Notes under the pieces: model-generated
What the model was told of the DNA's origin: nothing
What the model saw: only the letters and a program-made list of their open reading frames with translations
The model's database searches: none
Assembly (NCBI GenBank): GCA_000004985.1
Contig: GG738936.1
Length of the DNA: 64,000 nucleotides
Strand: one strand, 5' to 3'
Origin: Naegleria gruberi
Lineage: Eukaryota
Part shown: one piece after another, positions 8,943-46,258 of the stretch
Position numbering within the stretch: the first letter of the stretch is position 1
Layout of the letters: each line of letters starts with the position of its first letter
Made by a program: the position numbers and the translations under genes

Positions 8943-11347
8943 ATGAGCAGCAATAACCTACAAGCCTTCTCAAAAATCAAAAATCTCTTCCAACGAACAC
9001 AAAGTTCTGCTGCCAACAATAATAATAACGGCGATGCAAACAATTCACTCCCTTCAACCTCAACTAACAATTCGAATAATTCCTATTCTAATCTATCCTC
9101 ATCTCATGCAGCAACAACATCAAACAACACAGCAGGTTCTTCCTCATCATCATTATCATCGAGTCAGGGAACACTACTTTCCAATTCAAATCCTAATTTA
9201 TTAGCAAATACATCAATTAAACCTCCGTTAGAAATTGAACATGAATTTTTCTCAACACTTGAGGAACACCAAGATACGATGGAATTTTATAAGAAAGCGG
9301 AGAAGAAACTGTTGGATTTGAAAAAGAGTTCAAAGAAAATGATAGAAAAAGAACATGATATTGCTACATTGTTTAATGATTTTGCTCCCAAGTTTAAAAA
9401 GAATAAGGAAATGAGTGAAACTTTACGAAAGTTTGGTGGTAATTTGAAATCAACTTCAACACTCTTGTCACAAGCAGTAAGTTTTTTAGTTTTATTTTGT
9501 ATGGGTTTTAATAATGAAACTATATTGTTTTGAAAATACTTCAACAGATGATGAAACTGGACGAATTCAAAGATAAAACACTAGAAATGAGAGATGAAGG
9601 AAAAACCATATCCAAATTTAGGAGCAAGTATGATTCTGCAAGAAGTGATTATGAATCATTCAAGTTGGAAACACCTCGTGTGAATCCAGATAAAGATGGT
9701 TTTACAAACAAGCCAAATGAGCACGGAGAATATGATCCGCAATATATTGAAAGAACAAAGAAAGTTGAGGAAGATTTCAAACTAATTGCTAAAAATCTTA
9801 ACAATGCCTACTCTGATTATCATAATGAGTTGGATTTCCAACTATTGAAAAGAGATACCGAATATTTCTCAGACCTTAAATCATTTATTTATGCATACTA
9901 TTGCTATTTTAGTACTGGTATGGCTCTTTTCCAACAATTGGATAATGTAGTAAAGAAGGCAGAAGAAGCACAAATGCAAGAAGGTCATTTGTCAAAATCT
10001 AATGGAGTTCGTAATATTGCAGTGATACCAAAGCATATTTTCCCACATATAACTGCAGATAGAAATACTGTCTTTGGTGCACCATTGGAACAAGTAATGA
10101 TTCAGGATTATGATTCTGGTATTTTACGTTTGCCTCCCTCTATCAAGCAATTGTTTGATTTGATTAGAGCATTCGGATTGGATCAAGAAGGTGTTTTCAG
10201 AGTAAACTCTGATGAACAATACATGAAAAAGCTCATTATTGATATTGAAATGGGAAAGGAAATCCAATATGTGAATAAGTCATACTTTGTTCCAAGTATT
10301 GCTGGTGTGTTGAAACTTTTTGTGAGAGAATTGCAAGAACCACTCATGACTTTTGATGCATTCCAAGAAATTATTCTCAATCCAGACATGCAAACTCTGC
10401 CATCTGAATCTTCTGTAAAAGAAGGTCAAGTTTCAAAACTCAAAGAATTTATCAACACTAAGGTACCAATCCATTATCAAGTTGTCCTGTATGAATTGTG
10501 TAAACTTTTGAATGAAGTTGCACAACATGAGGACAAGAACAAGATGCACGCCAATAATTTATCTCTCATCTTTAGTATGAACCTTTTCAGACCTAGATTG
10601 GAAAATGCAGTCCAATTAGCTCAAAATGTCAAACATATGAGTTATGTCACATGTTTACTCATTGAAAATTTTGATACCCTCTTTGAAGCATCTCTAAAGA
10701 CAGTCTGTGATACACAAAACGAAGATCCATATGAACAAATTAGAAAGAGTATTGCTGAACAAAGGGAAGAAATACTTGATGAACCTGAATCTAATCCAAA
10801 CACTGCAAGAAGTATTGAAATCAAGATTGTAAACTTTGAACAAGAAAAGAAAGAGGAAGATTCTGAGGAGTCAGATTCAGATGATGAATCCGATATTGAA
10901 TCATCAGAAGATGTTGATACCAATAGTTCAATTTCATCACCAATGTTGACTTTCTCTGATTTACCAACCCTCAATTCTAGTGAAATCATTCAACCAAAAC
11001 GCCATTTAGATAGAAATGTCAAATATGATCACAAACATGTCACTTCCAACCATAATGTGAGTTTAATTCTCGCTCCATCCAAAGATCAATCCAAAGACCA
11101 AACTAAACTTCCAACATTCTCTCCAAGAATTGTAAAAATTAGAGCAAGAAACAATTTAGAAAATACAGATTCAATGCCAACAGAAATCGTGGAAATAAGT
11201 GAACCTTTCTCATCGAATGTGACACCAACCATTATTTCAGATCCACAAGTGATGAGAGCGATGGCTCCTCCAAGACGATTCATGAAACGAGTTGAAAAGA
11301 AAAACAGCAAACCTGTACTAACGAATGGTGAAACGTTGAATCAATAA
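8943..11347 (+). CDS. BAR-like N-terminal domain + RhoGAP domain protein with acidic/Ser-rich C-terminus; exons 8943-9476, 9548-11347
   Basis: RhoGAP signatures GVFRVNSDEQYMKKL, IAGVLKLFVRELQEPLMTF and NKMHANNLSLIFSMNLF; N-terminal coiled-coil BAR-like region; intron GTAAGT(9477)...CAACAG(9547) joins two track ORFs in frame; first ATG at 8943 (the track ORF starts at an upstream GTG). Confidence 0.8.
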
Positions 11348-40602: not shown

Positions 40603-40806
40603 TGTTGGAATTTTCAGTAAAGCCTTACCAGGTTTTTTGAAGATGCACACAACGCAGCCTTCACAACTTGAAAAAAAAAGCCTTTATATTGTTGCTGATA
40701 ATTTTTGTTTCCATTGGCAGTGGCACAATGTAAGGCTGAAAAATATATTGAGGGGCGATTAAGTTTCTTTTTCGGAACACTTGATTACCTAGAAATTAAC
40801 AAAAAA

Positions 40807-42999
40807 ATGAGCAAAATTAAACCTGCAGACATGTTGGAGGCATCACTACAACAAATTAAAAATGTTGTTGGTGTTGGTTCATCATCGGAGAGTGTTGGAA
40901 AGATTGTGGTGAATGTTAGCAAGATTTTGGAGGAAAATTCTGCCTATTTGGGGATTACTACATTTTACGAGAGTAACAAGTTGACATCTTCGCAGTTTGG
41001 ATCAAGTTGTAGGAATTTTCAGAAATGTTTGGATAGAGTGGAACATTTGGAATTGAGTGGAAATCAGTTGGAGTATTTTATTGTTAATGAAAAGTTGACA
41101 AGTGACTCAAAGTATTTTGTTAGCCAATTTGCAAAGAGTTTGACATTCTTGGATTTATCTAATAACATGATCAAGAATTTTCCTATTGAATGTTTGAGTA
41201 TTCCATTAAAAATATTAAATTTGGAAAATAATTTAATTACGAGTTTGGAAAATCTAGTGAAAGAGTTGAATGAGAACAAATCGGAAATGAAATTGTTGAA
41301 TTGTCTTGAGAGTTTAAATATTTCCAAAAATTTAATTCAACATTTTCCATTCTACATAATTGTTAAAAAGTTCAAAAAGGTTGATAGTATTGACCTAGGT
41401 GAAAATCCATTACAATCTCTTTCTATTAACATGTTGAAGGAACAGAAAAAGGGAATATTTGGAAGTAACGCATCATCTTCTGATAAAAACGAAGACATCA
41501 AGATATTGACTGACTATTCAGATGCTTCTATTACAAGTGTAAAGATGAACTCTATTGACCTTGAAACTATTAGAAAGAGGCTCGAGTTGAAAACTCCATT
41601 ATTATCCAACAAAACCAATTCAATTTTTAATTTATTTAAAAAGAAAATATCAGATGATATTTCATTCGATAACAGCAAGGATTTCTTCCCTGTGGAGTTA
41701 TTTGATCTTCCAAATATACAACATCTAGACCTTTCCAAAAACAAACATTTAAATTATTCCAAGATGAAACAACTTGTACTCAGTCCATCCATAACATCAC
41801 TTAATCTGTCCAATTGTCAATTAGATGAATCTGTTTCTAGAATATTCAAATCAATTTTAAACAATTCTATCAGGAAGTTGATATTACACAACAATAATAT
41901 CAAGGAAATTTTAATAGAAGATTTTCCAAATATCATTTCAATTAATTTATCCAATAATATTGAATACTACAAAAAGGATGAGAATATTTATAACATACTA
42001 TCGAATGTTAATCCAAAAATTGAAGAATTAACATTGAAACGAGTTTTTAAGAACGAAGAAGGATACAAAGACCTATTAAATCTGAGTCTTATAAGAAATA
42101 ATCTAGAAGTGCCCAAAATTGGAATTTCCTTATCCAAGTTTTCCAGTATCAGATCTTTGACACTCAGTGGATTATTTCTTTCATCAATTCCTTTAGATAT
42201 TAACCAATCAAATATGCCTAACATTGAATTTTTGGATCTTTCAGAAAATGAAATTGGAGATTTTTCTAGTAATTTGTTAATGCTCACAGAATTGAAGTCG
42301 ATAGACCTCTCATTCAATAATATTTCAACAATAGATGTAGATGATGAAATGTGCAACTTGACCAAGCTTACATCATTGGACCTTTCGCATAATAATCTCA
42401 CAGAATTTCCAATTGATCTAGTTCTATTATTACCCTCTATAGATATTCTTTCTCTTGAGTACAATACTAGTAATTTGAAAACAGCAAGAGAAGACAAGAA
42501 TGATATATTCAACCAATGGATGAAGGATCATAGTTCTGTGAAAATTAAACGAATGCTCATTGAACCAAGTTTAATTCTTGAGAGATTATATCTGGGAGGA
42601 AATGGTTCTGCCCAAAGTAAACACAATATGAAATTACTGGGCATTACTCACGTATTGAATGTTGCTGAGGGTTTAATAGCTCCATATCCTTTCGATTTCA
42701 AATATAAGAAAGTTGAACTTTCTGATACGTTAGGCGAGGATTTACTTCCGCACATAGATGCTTGTGTAAAATTTATAGAAGAGGCCATTGATTCACAAGG
42801 AACCATTCTTGTGCATTGCAAGGCAGGAGTAAGTCGTTCTGCCTCAATGGTAATTGCTTATGTAATGAAGAAATTCAAACTCTCTTTAGATGAAGCAACT
42901 CAAATGGTAAAGGAGAAGCGTTCACAGATTTGTCCTAATGGAGCATTTGTAAAACAATTGGAAGATTATGGACGTTTATTGAATCGTGAATCACATTAG
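40807..42999 (+). CDS. leucine-rich-repeat protein with C-terminal dual-specificity protein phosphatase domain
   Basis: about 15 LRRs (LxxLxLSxNxI), then DSP catalytic loop VHCKAGVSRSASMVIAYVMK and the general-acid region; first ATG at 40807 (track starts at TTG 40705). Confidence 0.8.
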   Translation: MSKIKPADMLEASLQQIKNVVGVGSSSESVGKIVVNVSKILEENSAYLGITTFYESNKLTSSQFGSSCRNFQKCLDRVEHLELSGNQLEYFIVNEKLTSDSKYFVSQFAKSLTFLDLSNNMIKNFPIECLSIPLKILNLENNLITSLENLVKELNENKSEMKLLNCLESLNISKNLIQHFPFYIIVKKFKKVDSIDLGENPLQSLSINMLKEQKKGIFGSNASSSDKNEDIKILTDYSDASITSVKMNSIDLETIRKRLELKTPLLSNKTNSIFNLFKKKISDDISFDNSKDFFPVELFDLPNIQHLDLSKNKHLNYSKMKQLVLSPSITSLNLSNCQLDESVSRIFKSILNNSIRKLILHNNNIKEILIEDFPNIISINLSNNIEYYKKDENIYNILSNVNPKIEELTLKRVFKNEEGYKDLLNLSLIRNNLEVPKIGISLSKFSSIRSLTLSGLFLSSIPLDINQSNMPNIEFLDLSENEIGDFSSNLLMLTELKSIDLSFNNISTIDVDDEMCNLTKLTSLDLSHNNLTEFPIDLVLLLPSIDILSLEYNTSNLKTAREDKNDIFNQWMKDHSSVKIKRMLIEPSLILERLYLGGNGSAQSKHNMKLLGITHVLNVAEGLIAPYPFDFKYKKVELSDTLGEDLLPHIDACVKFIEEAIDSQGTILVHCKAGVSRSASMVIAYVMKKFKLSLDEATQMVKEKRSQICPNGAFVKQLEDYGRLLNRESH

Positions 43000-44144
43000 T
43001 TGACATTTCTTTTTCTTTGAGAATAATTCCCTTTGGTGATGATAATACACAAGAGTTTTGGCAAAAACCTCGCTCAAGTCCTTTGTATTACCCTTCTCAA
43101 CATCAGCAATTACTGAGCTTTCCACATAGGTACAACAACCTGTAGAACGAGCCATCAATTCACCCTCACTGAAACTAATTGGTGCTGTAAATTGTTGAAA
43201 TTTCAATTCTTTGAGAATTTTTGTATTCTTTCTCAAATCAATCTTACATCCCATTAATATGATTGGAGTATCTGGTTTGTGAAATCTAATTTCTTTAATC
43301 CACTTGTACTGAATATTTTCAAAACTACTTGTAGAAACTATACTAAAGCAAAGACAAAATAGATCAGTTTCTGGATAGCTCAGCGGTCTTAATTTATCAT
43401 AACTTGAATTGGAATAAGATATCAGATTGTGAATTCAATAAGTACTTACTCTTCCTGACCTGCAGTATCCCATAAATCAAACTTTGAAATCTCTTCCGAA
43501 TCACCATAGTATGAAATACAAGCAACATCACATGGACCATGTAAATATTCGGGTACATATCCCCAACCCAAATAATAAATTAATGAAGTTTTTCCAACAG
43601 CTCCATCACCATTAATTATCTTACTGAAATCAGTAAATTCAATTCATCGACTTACCACTTTTTTATTAATTGACTTTCCTTTTTTTTCCACATCAAATCC
43701 TCTTAAAGGTTGCAAATGTTGCTCCTTAATAGTCAATTTAATTTCTTTGAAATTCTGATAAAGTTCTTTCTCATCTTTTCCATAAGAACGAATATTGGCT
43801 ATTTTAATTCTTTCCTTTTTACTTTGCTCAATTTCCTTCTGAAATTTTTCTTTTAATTCCAAAAATGATTTTCGATAATCCTTTTCCAGAGATAGATACG
43901 GACCATACAATTGATCCATTCTATGTCTATTATGCGGACCATATATAACATAATATCGATATCTGGAAATTTCCGATTTCATACTCTGAATTTTACTTTT
44001 AACAAATTCCTTTTGAAATTCATCATGACTAATAATTAGCGAATTAAATGATGTGGAAATTAAACGAATGGTATCTTGCAGGAAATGACAATCTAAAAAA
44101 CTGAAAACCACTCCAAGCTCATCAGTATTTAAACGTTCCAACAT
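42991..44144 (-). CDS. F-box-like N-terminal region (about 163 aa) fused to a Rac/Rho-family GTPase with polybasic-CAAX end (KKKKCQLM); exons 44144-43656, 43619-43450, 43402-42991
   Basis: N-term LNTDELGVVFSFLDCHFLQDTIRLISTSFNSLI (F-box-like) plus coiled coil; GTPase KKV/[14 protein letters not shown] (G1), [42 protein letters not shown] (G3/Rho insert), CKIDLR (G4), CAAX; GTAAGT donors; the 36-nt first intron is required because the GTPase domain has no ATG of its own. Confidence 0.7.
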
Positions 44145-44195
44145 TTTTTTCAAAGTTCACAGAGCAGATTACCTTTACAATTTAATTGTTGGTAT

Positions 44196-45044
44196 TTATT
44201 CGAAATGAATGGTGGTACGTACTCCATAATGATCTGAAACTTCAATTCCATCCTCATTCTTCCATCTGATTATGTCGAATGAATGTTTGCAATTATTCGA
44301 AATAAAAACATGATCTAAACACCAATTATTAAATGTTGGAATTGGATAGGTCACTGGGTGTCTACTTGTATCATCGCCAAAAACATTTTTCAGCCCCAAT
44401 GAACTCATACTATTTTTCAAGTAGGCATAACTATCATTCGAATGCAATGAATCAATATTGTAATCTCCACAAATTACAACTCTAACATTTTCAAAATCAA
44501 TCTGGTAATGATTTCTGAAATTGTCAATCTTGTCATTCACAAATTGAACCAATTCCTTAATTTGTTCTCTCCTTGACCTATCCTTATGAGCATCCATATG
44601 AACTGAAAATATCATCAAATAATCAGCATCACCTTCTTCATTCTTCTTCTTCTTAATAAGTGCATAGAGAATTCCCTTTGCAACAATATACTCTGTATAA
44701 CTTGCATATTGGAAAATGTAATTTTCACTCTCTAGAATTTCATGTCTCGTTAATAGAAGTAATCCAGAATCTTGCATAAATAATTTGGGAGGTTGAGATT
44801 GAATGCACTGGTAGCCTAAATTATTTGCCTCACTGATCAAGAGTGTTTTAAGTTCGGAATTGAATGAAAATCCATTGAATAAACCAAATCCACCAAATTC
44901 AAACATTTCCTGAAGTGCAATCACATCTAAATCTTTTCCTTCATTTTGTAAATTTTCAATAAAACCAACAATTCGTTCCTTCTTGTGGGGTGGAACTCGT
45001 AGGGAGAGGGAAGTGAGCCACAGATTGTAACTGAGAAGATTCAT
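44196..45044 (-). CDS. endonuclease/exonuclease/phosphatase (EEP) family phosphodiesterase, neutral-sphingomyelinase-like
   Basis: LSYNLW...DVIALQE near the N-terminus; FSVHMDAH, ICGDYN and SDHYGV motifs match EEP catalytic residues; first ATG at 45044. Confidence 0.7.
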   Translation of the reverse strand: MNLLSYNLWLTSLSLRVPPHKKERIVGFIENLQNEGKDLDVIALQEMFEFGGFGLFNGFSFNSELKTLLISEANNLGYQCIQSQPPKLFMQDSGLLLLTRHEILESENYIFQYASYTEYIVAKGILYALIKKKKNEEGDADYLMIFSVHMDAHKDRSRREQIKELVQFVNDKIDNFRNHYQIDFENVRVVICGDYNIDSLHSNDSYAYLKNSMSSLGLKNVFGDDTSRHPVTYPIPTFNNWCLDHVFISNNCKHSFDIIRWKNEDGIEVSDHYGVRTTIHFE

Positions 45045-45146
45045 ATTTTTCAATTTAATTGGATTTTTAAATTCTTGAAACTAAACTGGATTTGATATTT
45101 CAAATCTAGATTAAAATTGTAAAGTGTTGAAAATAGAAAAAAAACT

Positions 45147-46258
45147 TTAATCGAACAATGGAAGACTCCAGAAATTGATTGGATCACAAGTTCTAGTGAG
45201 ATTGTTCTTTTCCAAACCTTCAAGAGATTCCATATCTTCACTTGACAATTCAAAATCAAAGATCTTGCTATTTTCAATAATTCTTTCTTCCTTAGTTGAC
45301 TTTGGAATAACAATACATCCTCTTTGAGTAGACCACTTCAACAAGATTTGAGCAGGAGTCTTTCCTAACTTTTCAGCCAAAGACTTGACAGTTTGATTGT
45401 TAACAGGTGAACTTTCATTAAAGTGACCAAGTGGAGAATAAGCAACCAAAGCAATATCACCAAGAGCTTGCTTCAATTTACGTTGATTAAGGTATGGGTG
45501 ACATTCAACTTGATTAGCAGCTGGCTTAATTCTGGCATAAGTCAACAAATCATAAACAAGAGCAATTGGGAAATTTGAAATACCAATTGACTTGACCAAA
45601 CCATCATCAACAAGTTTTTCCATTTCTTCCCATGTTTCTCTGAGTGGAACAGCTTCCATAGCAATCTTTCCATTTTCATCCTTTGGGAAAACATTTTCAT
45701 CCTTCTTAATATCATCACCAACATATTTGAAATTGAAAGGCCAGTGAATCAAGTACATGTCCAAATAATCTAACTTTAAATCACTCAAGGTTTGAAGACA
45801 AGCCTTTCTAACATGTTCCTTCTTGTGGAAAGTATTCCAAAGCTTGGAAACAACATAAACATCGGAACGATTAAACTTCTTTTCAGTATTAAAGAGTCTA
45901 TCAAAGGTTTCACCAATTTCCTGTTCGTTTCTATAGATGGCTGCACAATCAATATGACGATAGCCTTGTTCGAGAGCAAATTCAACAGCACGTGAAACTT
46001 CTCCTGGAGCAGATAACCAAGTACCTTTTTATCAATATATTATTTATGTAAATATGTATATATGTATTGTTGAATAGAATATTATATTAATAATTGATCA
46101 TTATCATCACAATAATATTAATCATCATCACACAATATATATTCATATTAAAATAATGAATTTAATAAATTAAAATCAAGCTTACCTAAACCAAAGATTG
46201 GCATCTTGGTACCATTATTCAAAGTGATGGATTGATCGAGTGGAGTAACTTGAGACAT
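45147..46258 (-). CDS. aldo-keto reductase; exons 46258-46186, 46024-45147
   Basis: MSQVTPLDQSITLNNGTKMPIFGLG/TWLSAPGEV...GYRHIDCAAIY...LSDLKLDYLDMYLIHWP...IGISNF; the 161-nt AT-rich intron splits the GLGTW motif in phase 1. Confidence 0.8.

Follow-up and report, generated by a model that had tools for sequence, protein, structure and literature searches.

The stretch analysed here, 64,000 nucleotides of contig GG738936.1 (the window), is AT-rich eukaryotic DNA from a Naegleria-like heterolobosean, with a GC content of 33%. Its minus strand carries, at 44144-42991, a three-exon gene whose 356-residue product consists of a 163-residue N-terminal extension, a Rac-like GTPase domain and a KKKK-CQLM tail, in that order. 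By sequence, the gene is an ortholog of the Naegleria gruberi protein XP_002673500 and belongs to an F-box-Rho family that has undergone expansion in Naegleria and Willaertia; it is a new, earlier mis-called member of a published, functionally unexplored family. We hold this architecture and family membership with high confidence. The fuller explanation, in which the three exons encode a divergent F-box, a linker, an atypical Rac-like GTPase and a CAAX tail that together act as a component of an SCF (Skp1-Cul1-F-box) ubiquitin ligase, is in our judgement the probable one, with appreciable room for doubt.

Gene structure of the fusion

Exon 1 (43656-44144, minus strand; 489 nucleotides, 163 codons) holds the start codon, the F-box region and a helical linker. 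The start ATG lies at 44144 and is preceded, four codons upstream, by an in-frame TGA. Intron 1 (43620-43655, minus strand) is 36 nucleotides long and of phase 0; it has the form GTAAGT...CTGAT..CAGTAAG (full letters GTAAGTCGATGAATTGAATTTACTGATTTCAGTAAG), and its removal puts the end of exon 1, ...NKKV, in frame with exon 2. The latter (43450-43619, minus strand) opens at 43619 with the codons ATA ATT AAT GGT GAT GGA and encodes the P-loop, a degenerate switch I and the DTAGQE motif. Intron 2 (43403-43449, minus strand; 47 nucleotides, phase 2) falls between WDTAGQE(D) and YDKL, and exon 3 (42991-43402, minus strand) supplies the remaining Rho GTPase, KKKK, CQLM and the stop codon TGA at 42993-42991. 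The motifs and coordinates that an initial annotation of this DNA had named for such a fusion were all found in the window sequence; one peptide alone, given as ...QEE, has to be read as WDTAGQED/YDKL because of the second intron (43449-43403). That annotation had further stated that the GTPase domain has no initiator ATG of its own, and the window sequence bears this out: there is no in-frame ATG between intron 1 and the P-loop, and the first methionine within the GTPase part, that of MGCKIDLR, lies far downstream of the P-loop.

Full-length relatives provided the evidence that extension and GTPase form one protein. The best database match was the N. gruberi 'rho family GTPase' XP_002673500 (P0001, 354 residues), with 62% identity over 100% of the query and both intron positions in common. 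Proteins of Naegleria lovaniensis (P0011, 358 residues) and Willaertia magna (P0068, 321 residues) covered 99-100% of the query, and at their loci (L001 and L002) the extension and the P-loop lie within one uninterrupted exon. The only intron at these two loci occupies the DTAGQx/DYD position, which is that of intron 2 in the window gene; introns at this position measure 49 nucleotides in N. lovaniensis and 46 nucleotides in both Willaertia and the N. gruberi-like ortholog. DNA of this ortholog was taken for comparison from a metagenome contig (L004), in which the gene is 74% identical to the window gene at the nucleotide level. There, a 45-nucleotide GTAAGT...GCAG intron interrupts the gene at the same codon boundary as intron 1, reading KKI/IFNGDG, and the first bases of exon 2 are ATATTTAATGG as against ATAATTAATGG in the window gene. 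We infer the 36-nucleotide acceptor of intron 1 from this orthology. Given the ortholog's intron at the matching codon boundary, and paralogs that encode this region in one exon, the fusion appears to be no splice artefact, and because architecture and intron positions recur among the relatives it is more than a chance arrangement. The initial proposal of a single polypeptide made of the extension and a CAAX-bearing Rho GTPase is well supported by the full-length homologs, the one-exon paralogs and the shared intron position.

Patterns of substitution pointed in the same direction. A second metagenome contig, L003 (ENA ERZ929261, ERR1078381, PRJEB11402; 4.2 kb), is 98.7% identical to window positions 46014-41777. 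Exon 1 differs by five substitutions, none of which alters a residue; in exon 2 a synonymous change is accompanied by a replacement of Val by Ile, and exon 3 is unchanged, which amounts to six synonymous and one conservative coding substitution overall. The sole change in intron 1 is an A-to-T difference at 43622 that turns TAAG into TTAG and keeps the distal AG. Against the more distant L004, the ratio of nonsynonymous to synonymous substitution rates (dN/dS) was 0.31 for the extension, 0.31 for the GTPase and 0.34 for the F-box segment. Judged from these comparisons, both halves are coding, under purifying selection and parts of one gene. L003 and L004 come from the same ENA sample, in which two related Naegleria-like amoebae therefore co-occur. 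The only public record of the window gene is a 166-residue read-through open reading frame (P0122, ending ...KKVVSR*) that derives from the gene caller used on L003.

A heuristic scan for introns that join long open reading frames returned other candidate short GTAAGT...AG introns in the window, of 42, 45 and 48 nucleotides on the minus strand (57005-56964, 52549-52505 and 33402-33355) and 71 nucleotides on the plus strand (9477-9547). The 42-48-nucleotide candidates make very short introns plausible in this DNA, which is short of proof for one of 36 nucleotides. Several of the four candidates end in AAG, as do both introns of the F-box-Rho gene.

Database models of the closest N. gruberi genes differ from the window gene in some details. 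The NCBI model of XP_002673500 lacks three residues at the DTAGQE/DYD junction, where it reads QEE-LRPLSYP when set against L004 841-930; this is an error caused by the choice of wrong splice sites for intron 2. The corrected model of Herman et al. gives the junction as QEDYDRLRPLSYP and adds the upstream sequence MVINDFMLFCKVYQKK, an extension into which the related strain L004 places a stop codon that closes it. A close paralog of XP_002673500, P0002 (N. gruberi, 239 residues), has a model that starts inside the linker and has no F-box, P-loop or switch I. Either the copy is decaying or the model is wrong, which fits the birth-and-death evolution that Herman et al. describe.

The GTPase domain and its tail

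The Pfam Ras model, which had been proposed as a check on this protein, matched residues 162-318 with E=9.3e-30. The closest matches outside the family were Rac/Rho proteins. A structure model of the ortholog superimposed on Rac1/RhoA with a template modelling score (TM-score, target-normalised) of 0.80-0.86, and the fold search with this model did no more than confirm Rac/Rho. The G1 motif GDGAVGKT (the P-loop; 43610-43587, minus strand, exon 2) and the G3 motif DTAGQ (within WDTAGQ) are intact, and the G4 motif CKID (43248-43237, minus strand; within CKIDLR) keeps its conserved K and D. The Rho insert RKNTKILKELKFQQFTAPI (43233-43177, minus strand) aligned with the insert of Naegleria and Willaertia Rac proteins. 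A tblastn search found no other Rho genes in the 64-kb window.

Switch I is the exception. The threonine of this region (Thr35 of Rac1) senses Mg2+ and the gamma-phosphate of the bound nucleotide. The window segment YVPEYLHGPCDVA (43559-43521, minus strand) has no equivalent of it, and when aligned with EYVPTVFDNY it places Gly/Pro at the Thr35 position. The N. gruberi ortholog and Willaertia P0068 lack the threonine as well; it is kept in N. lovaniensis P0011, which differs from the window protein in this respect. Because of this loss, the domain classifies by sequence as an atypical Rho, and its use of canonical effectors seems unlikely.

The protein ends 20 residues beyond the G domain. In exon 3, a polybasic KKKK (43017-43006, minus strand) is followed by the CAAX box CQLM (43005-42994, minus strand), which stands directly before the stop codon. 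Under the standard CAAX rule a terminal methionine specifies farnesylation. The rule predicts that CQLM would be farnesylated, and its combination with KKKK suggests targeting to the plasma membrane.

The N-terminal extension and its family

The divergent F-box spans residues 2-47 (44004-44141, minus strand; LERLNTDELGVVFSFLDCHFLQDTIRLISTSFNSLIISHDEFQKEF) and was recognised through family profiles. A profile built from four extensions matched the F-box of human FBXO3 in the PDB (FBXO3 residues 9-71, E=2.6e-5) and, weakly, that of SKP2. An exhaustive HMMER search with the same profile, over 1.84 billion representatives, returned 43 proteins. Among 42 scanned relatives, Pfam F-box was matched by 25, F-box-like by 21 (both at E<=0.01) and Ras by 23, and the F-box matches sit at the homologous position. 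UniProt names some paralogs 'F-box domain-containing protein'. When homologs were sought once more through a word index, this time with an alignment of 20 extension sequences, only two proteins and nothing new were returned.

A larger profile of 28 sequences, which covers the first ~64 residues of the family and has the consensus LNDDxxRxILSFL...LVSKSxR...L..ED..WK, was compared with the PDB. F-box domains made up 16 of its 18 matches: FBXO3 was the best at 2.5e-9, and FBXL5, FBXW24/21/12/19, FBXO4, FBXL2, beta-TrCP1/2, FBXW7 and SKP2 were among the others. When the window protein and its two closest relatives were left out of the profile, residues 2-60 still scored 29.3 bits (E=3.6e-11). The core residues of an F-box are present at L5, L10, V13, F14, F16, L17, L22, L28, I29 and S30, and within the tightly conserved family motif S15, F16, L17 and D8 vary little or not at all. 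The pattern over which the N-terminus of the family can be aligned with the F-boxes of proteins such as FBXO3, SKP2, FBXW7 and beta-TrCP can be written L-x-x-[DE]-x-[LI]-x-x-I-[LF]-S-[FY]-L ... [LV]-[SC]-[KR] ... L ... [DE]-x-x-[LF]-W. These comparisons support the N-terminus as a weak but real, divergent F-box, recognisable at the profile level only.

The helical linker comprises residues 48-163 (~115 residues, exon 1) and bears the motif DYRKSFLELKEK at 43880-43845 (minus strand), of the form NF[RK]xxLIE that is conserved across the family. N. gruberi, N. lovaniensis, Naegleria fowleri and Willaertia together supplied more than 20 relatives in which the spacing from F-box to P-loop agrees with that of the window protein. 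With an F-box, the linker motif and, ~130-160 residues after the F-box, a Rho P-loop in one polypeptide, the window protein has, by its sequence features, what defines the Heterolobosean F-box-linker-Rho family. Six of the scanned relatives carry Kelch repeats ahead of the F-box (Kelch-F-box-Rho). Examples are P0127/P0163 (N. gruberi XP_002672610, 700 residues), P0131, P0132 and P0138 (N. fowleri, 731 residues); in these proteins the F-box lies between two potential partner-binding domains, an unusual order among F-box proteins.

Several observations weigh against reading the protein as a working SCF component. The initial annotation held that the N-terminus fits the F-box consensus and named the Pfam F-box hidden Markov model as a check. 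The family-profile homology upholds the fit, but the Pfam check failed, with no F-box or F-box-like match at E<=10 in either the 356-residue protein or the 163-residue extension. Ras/Roc was the only Pfam result on these two sequences apart from Retrotrans_gag (E 0.03-0.39) and GCS matches, which were judged spurious. The closest relatives also fall below the Pfam F-box cutoff of 20.5 bits, with 12.7 bits (E 0.12) for P0001 and 13.9 bits (E 0.052) for P0011; the paralog P0127 exceeds it at 22.3 bits. The consensus fit is further reduced by substitutions at hallmark positions. The LPxE proline is Asn6 here and Asn throughout the family, the F-box K/R is Thr31, the tryptophan of helix 3 is Phe33 and the trailing tryptophan is Gln44; the window orthogroup has also lost the Arg and the Trp of the family consensus. 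AlphaFold2 placed helices at residues 6-15, 19-28 and 30-36 of the ortholog with a low predicted local distance difference test score (pLDDT) of 51-57, and the model of the extension alone, as the exon 1 product, was likewise low at 52.5. To these we add, from the GTPase domain, the loss of the switch I threonine, which casts doubt on a canonical GTP-dependent switch. At intron 1, a nearer acceptor, the CAG at 43624, would give a 32-nucleotide intron and a product that ends in KKV followed by an immediate TAA stop; this CAG lies only 5-6 nucleotides past the likely CTGAT branch site, and orthology gives it no support.

Proposed function, related systems and neighbouring genes

F-box proteins are SCF subunits that link to Skp1-Cul1-Rbx1, and they usually carry a C-terminal WD40, leucine-rich repeat (LRR) or Kelch domain. 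We tentatively propose, and rate at somewhat under an even chance, that the window protein is a membrane-anchored SCF subunit in which the Rho domain selects partners and self-ubiquitination limits abundance. The F-box would dock the protein onto Skp1-Cul1-Rbx1, a step that is established for F-box proteins. The membrane-anchored GTPase domain would serve as the partner-binding module in place of WD40, LRR or Kelch repeats, since it is placed after the F-box and a helical linker, where a substrate-binding domain usually sits. Membrane-localised ubiquitination would result, governed by nucleotide state or by conformation. As is usual for F-box proteins, self-ubiquitination would probably occur too and cap the protein's own level. 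A mechanism of this type would parallel those of RhoBTB with Cul3 and Rab40 with Cul5.

A related possibility, which overlaps this proposal and which we consider unlikely as the principal role, is that the F-box is mainly a self-destruction handle acting in cis, bringing the SCF complex to the GTPase itself and yielding a short-lived Rho. Many F-box proteins ubiquitinate themselves. Cul3 has the RhoBTB proteins among its own substrates (PMC4931677), and the trypanosome protein TbFRP is rapidly proteolysed, a turnover that its authors link to the F-box (PMC3593210). Against this, the GTPase stands C-terminal to F-box and linker, where a substrate-binding domain is usually found, and the Kelch-F-box-Rho paralogs suggest a multi-partner scaffold; sequence does not separate a handle from a substrate receptor.

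Less probable still is an F-box-derived N-terminus that no longer recruits Skp1, so that the helical or coiled-coil extension would regulate, dimerise or localise an atypical Rho and no ubiquitin ligase would be involved. The failed Pfam match, the Pro-to-Asn change in LPxE and the loss of the family-conserved Arg and Trp in the orthogroup are what such a protein would be expected to present; most of the extension (residues 48-163), moreover, is predicted to form a long helix for which no homolog is known, and the table of Herman et al. gives the N. gruberi ortholog no F-box flag. On the other side, the F-box segment is under the same constraint as the rest of the protein (dN/dS 0.34), many F-boxes whose Skp1 binding is structurally verified are matched by the family profile across the full three-helix span, and the family motif is tight, with S15, F16, L17 and D8 at or near invariance.

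A more specific version of the SCF proposal is speculative, and we regard it as improbable. It holds that the orthogroup would be a farnesylated plasma-membrane SCF substrate receptor whose Rho domain, having lost the switch I threonine, would not cycle in the manner of Rac and would act as a nucleotide-locked or conformation-gated substrate binder, and that the CAG and AAG acceptors, 4 nucleotides apart, would switch between the full receptor and a 163-residue F-box-only protein that competes for Skp1. Very improbable is a gene that has two products or is decaying, in which the 32-nucleotide intron or intron retention would yield an F-box-like protein of 163-166 residues and leave the GTPase exons as an untranslated or pseudogene remnant: the CAG comes first, gene callers output exactly the 166-residue P0122, the GTPase part lacks a separate ATG, P0002 is truncated and birth-and-death evolution is known in related F-box-Rab clades (Herman et al., PMC8296547), but the GTPase exons keep an intact reading frame and are constrained (dN/dS 0.31, with no exon 3 substitutions against L003), the L004 ortholog shares the place of the intron and the opening bases of exon 2, the CAG crowds the likely branch site, and the intron-less paralogs prove the fused protein to be the norm of the family.

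The architecture itself is no longer surprising. The initial annotation called a Rho GTPase with an F-box an unusual link between Rho signalling and ubiquitin ligases, which was overstated, as F-box-GTPase fusions that include F-box-Rho were catalogued for Naegleria in 2021 (PMC8296547) and RhoBTB/Cul3, Rab40/Cul5 and TbFRP are known. Among the Rab, Rho and Ran as well as the G-alpha GTPases of Naegleria, the F-box was the most frequent added domain, 'pointing to GTPase-dependent ubiquitination' (Herman et al., 2021, BMC Biol 19:142, PMC8296547 supplement). Table S8 of that study flags the Rac entries XP_002671699, XP_002676320 and XP_002682912 as carrying an F-box, and lists XP_002673500 as a Rac, with the corrected model, without such a flag (PMC8296547, Supplementary Material 4). 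Birth-and-death evolution was described there for F-box-Rab clades related to F-box-Rho (PMC8296547). The window protein resembles the Naegleria F-box-Rho proteins in its LNDDxxRxILSFL-type F-box, a helical linker of ~100 residues with NF[RK]xxLIE, a Rac-like GTPase and a CAAX box; its orthogroup differs from the flagged paralogs by a more divergent F-box. What the locus adds is a corrected model for a gene that public gene calls split or read through at the intron, together with a divergent F-box in an orthogroup that has no F-box flag in the published table. If such fusions work as proposed, GTPase-directed ubiquitination would be one of the major themes of regulation in these amoebae, the pathogen N. 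fowleri among them.

A functional analogy is offered by RhoBTB, in which an atypical Rho-family GTPase is likewise fused in one chain to a cullin-recruiting module. RhoBTB proteins are both adaptors and substrates of the Cul3 ligase, and their GTPase domain regulates assembly of the ligase (PMC4931677). They recruit Cul3 through a C-terminal tandem BTB, whereas the window protein has an N-terminal F-box for Skp1/Cul1; Pfam matched no BTB domain in the window protein, which is not a member of the RhoBTB family. Rab40 is a prenylated Rab with a C-terminal SOCS box that acts as the substrate-selecting subunit of a Cul5 ligase at membranes (PMC8129794, PMC9070665). A prenylatable, CAAX-type small GTPase with a short box that binds a cullin adaptor is common to both proteins, and the similarity is convergent: Rab40 is a Rab whose SOCS box works with Elongin BC and Cul5, and the window protein is a Rho with an N-terminal F-box for Skp1 and Cul1. 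TbFRP, a FYVE-F-box-Ras-like GTPase of Euglenozoa/trypanosomes whose F-box was linked to rapid turnover (PMC3593210), belongs to another lineage of discobids and likewise has its F-box on the N-terminal side of a Ras-superfamily GTPase. It differs in having a FYVE domain for targeting to phosphatidylinositol 3-phosphate (PI3P) and a Ras-like GTPase, where the window protein has a CAAX box and a Rho. From canonical F-box proteins, which have the LPxE proline and a WD40, LRR or Kelch partner domain, the window protein is set apart by its Asn, its small GTPase and an F-box that scores below the Pfam threshold.

The gene lies in closely packed surroundings. Upstream on the same strand, a gene of the Exo_endo_phos family (E 4.9e-10) occupies 44196-45053, and the gap from its stop codon to the F-box-Rho ATG is only 51 nucleotides (window 44145-44198). 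The promoter and 5' untranslated region (UTR) of the F-box-Rho gene must therefore be very compact or lie inside this upstream gene. The N. gruberi-like ortholog (L004 152-165) has the ATG context CTTTGAAAAAAATG without a single change. Between L003 and the window, 33 of the 56 differences and an 18-nucleotide length difference are located in the Exo_endo_phos gene. At the other end, the coding sequence overlaps by 9 nucleotides (42991-42999) a convergent open reading frame on the plus strand (40705-42999, 764 residues) that encodes leucine-rich repeats (LRR_4, LRR_8) and a dual-specificity phosphatase (Pfam DSPc 1.4e-34), and the 3' UTRs of the two genes must overlap. Further upstream, an open reading frame at 45147-45788 on the minus strand encodes a fragment of an aldo/keto reductase (Pfam 2.1e-34); as it matches profile positions 97-289 only, the 5' part of this gene is probably located in a further upstream exon.

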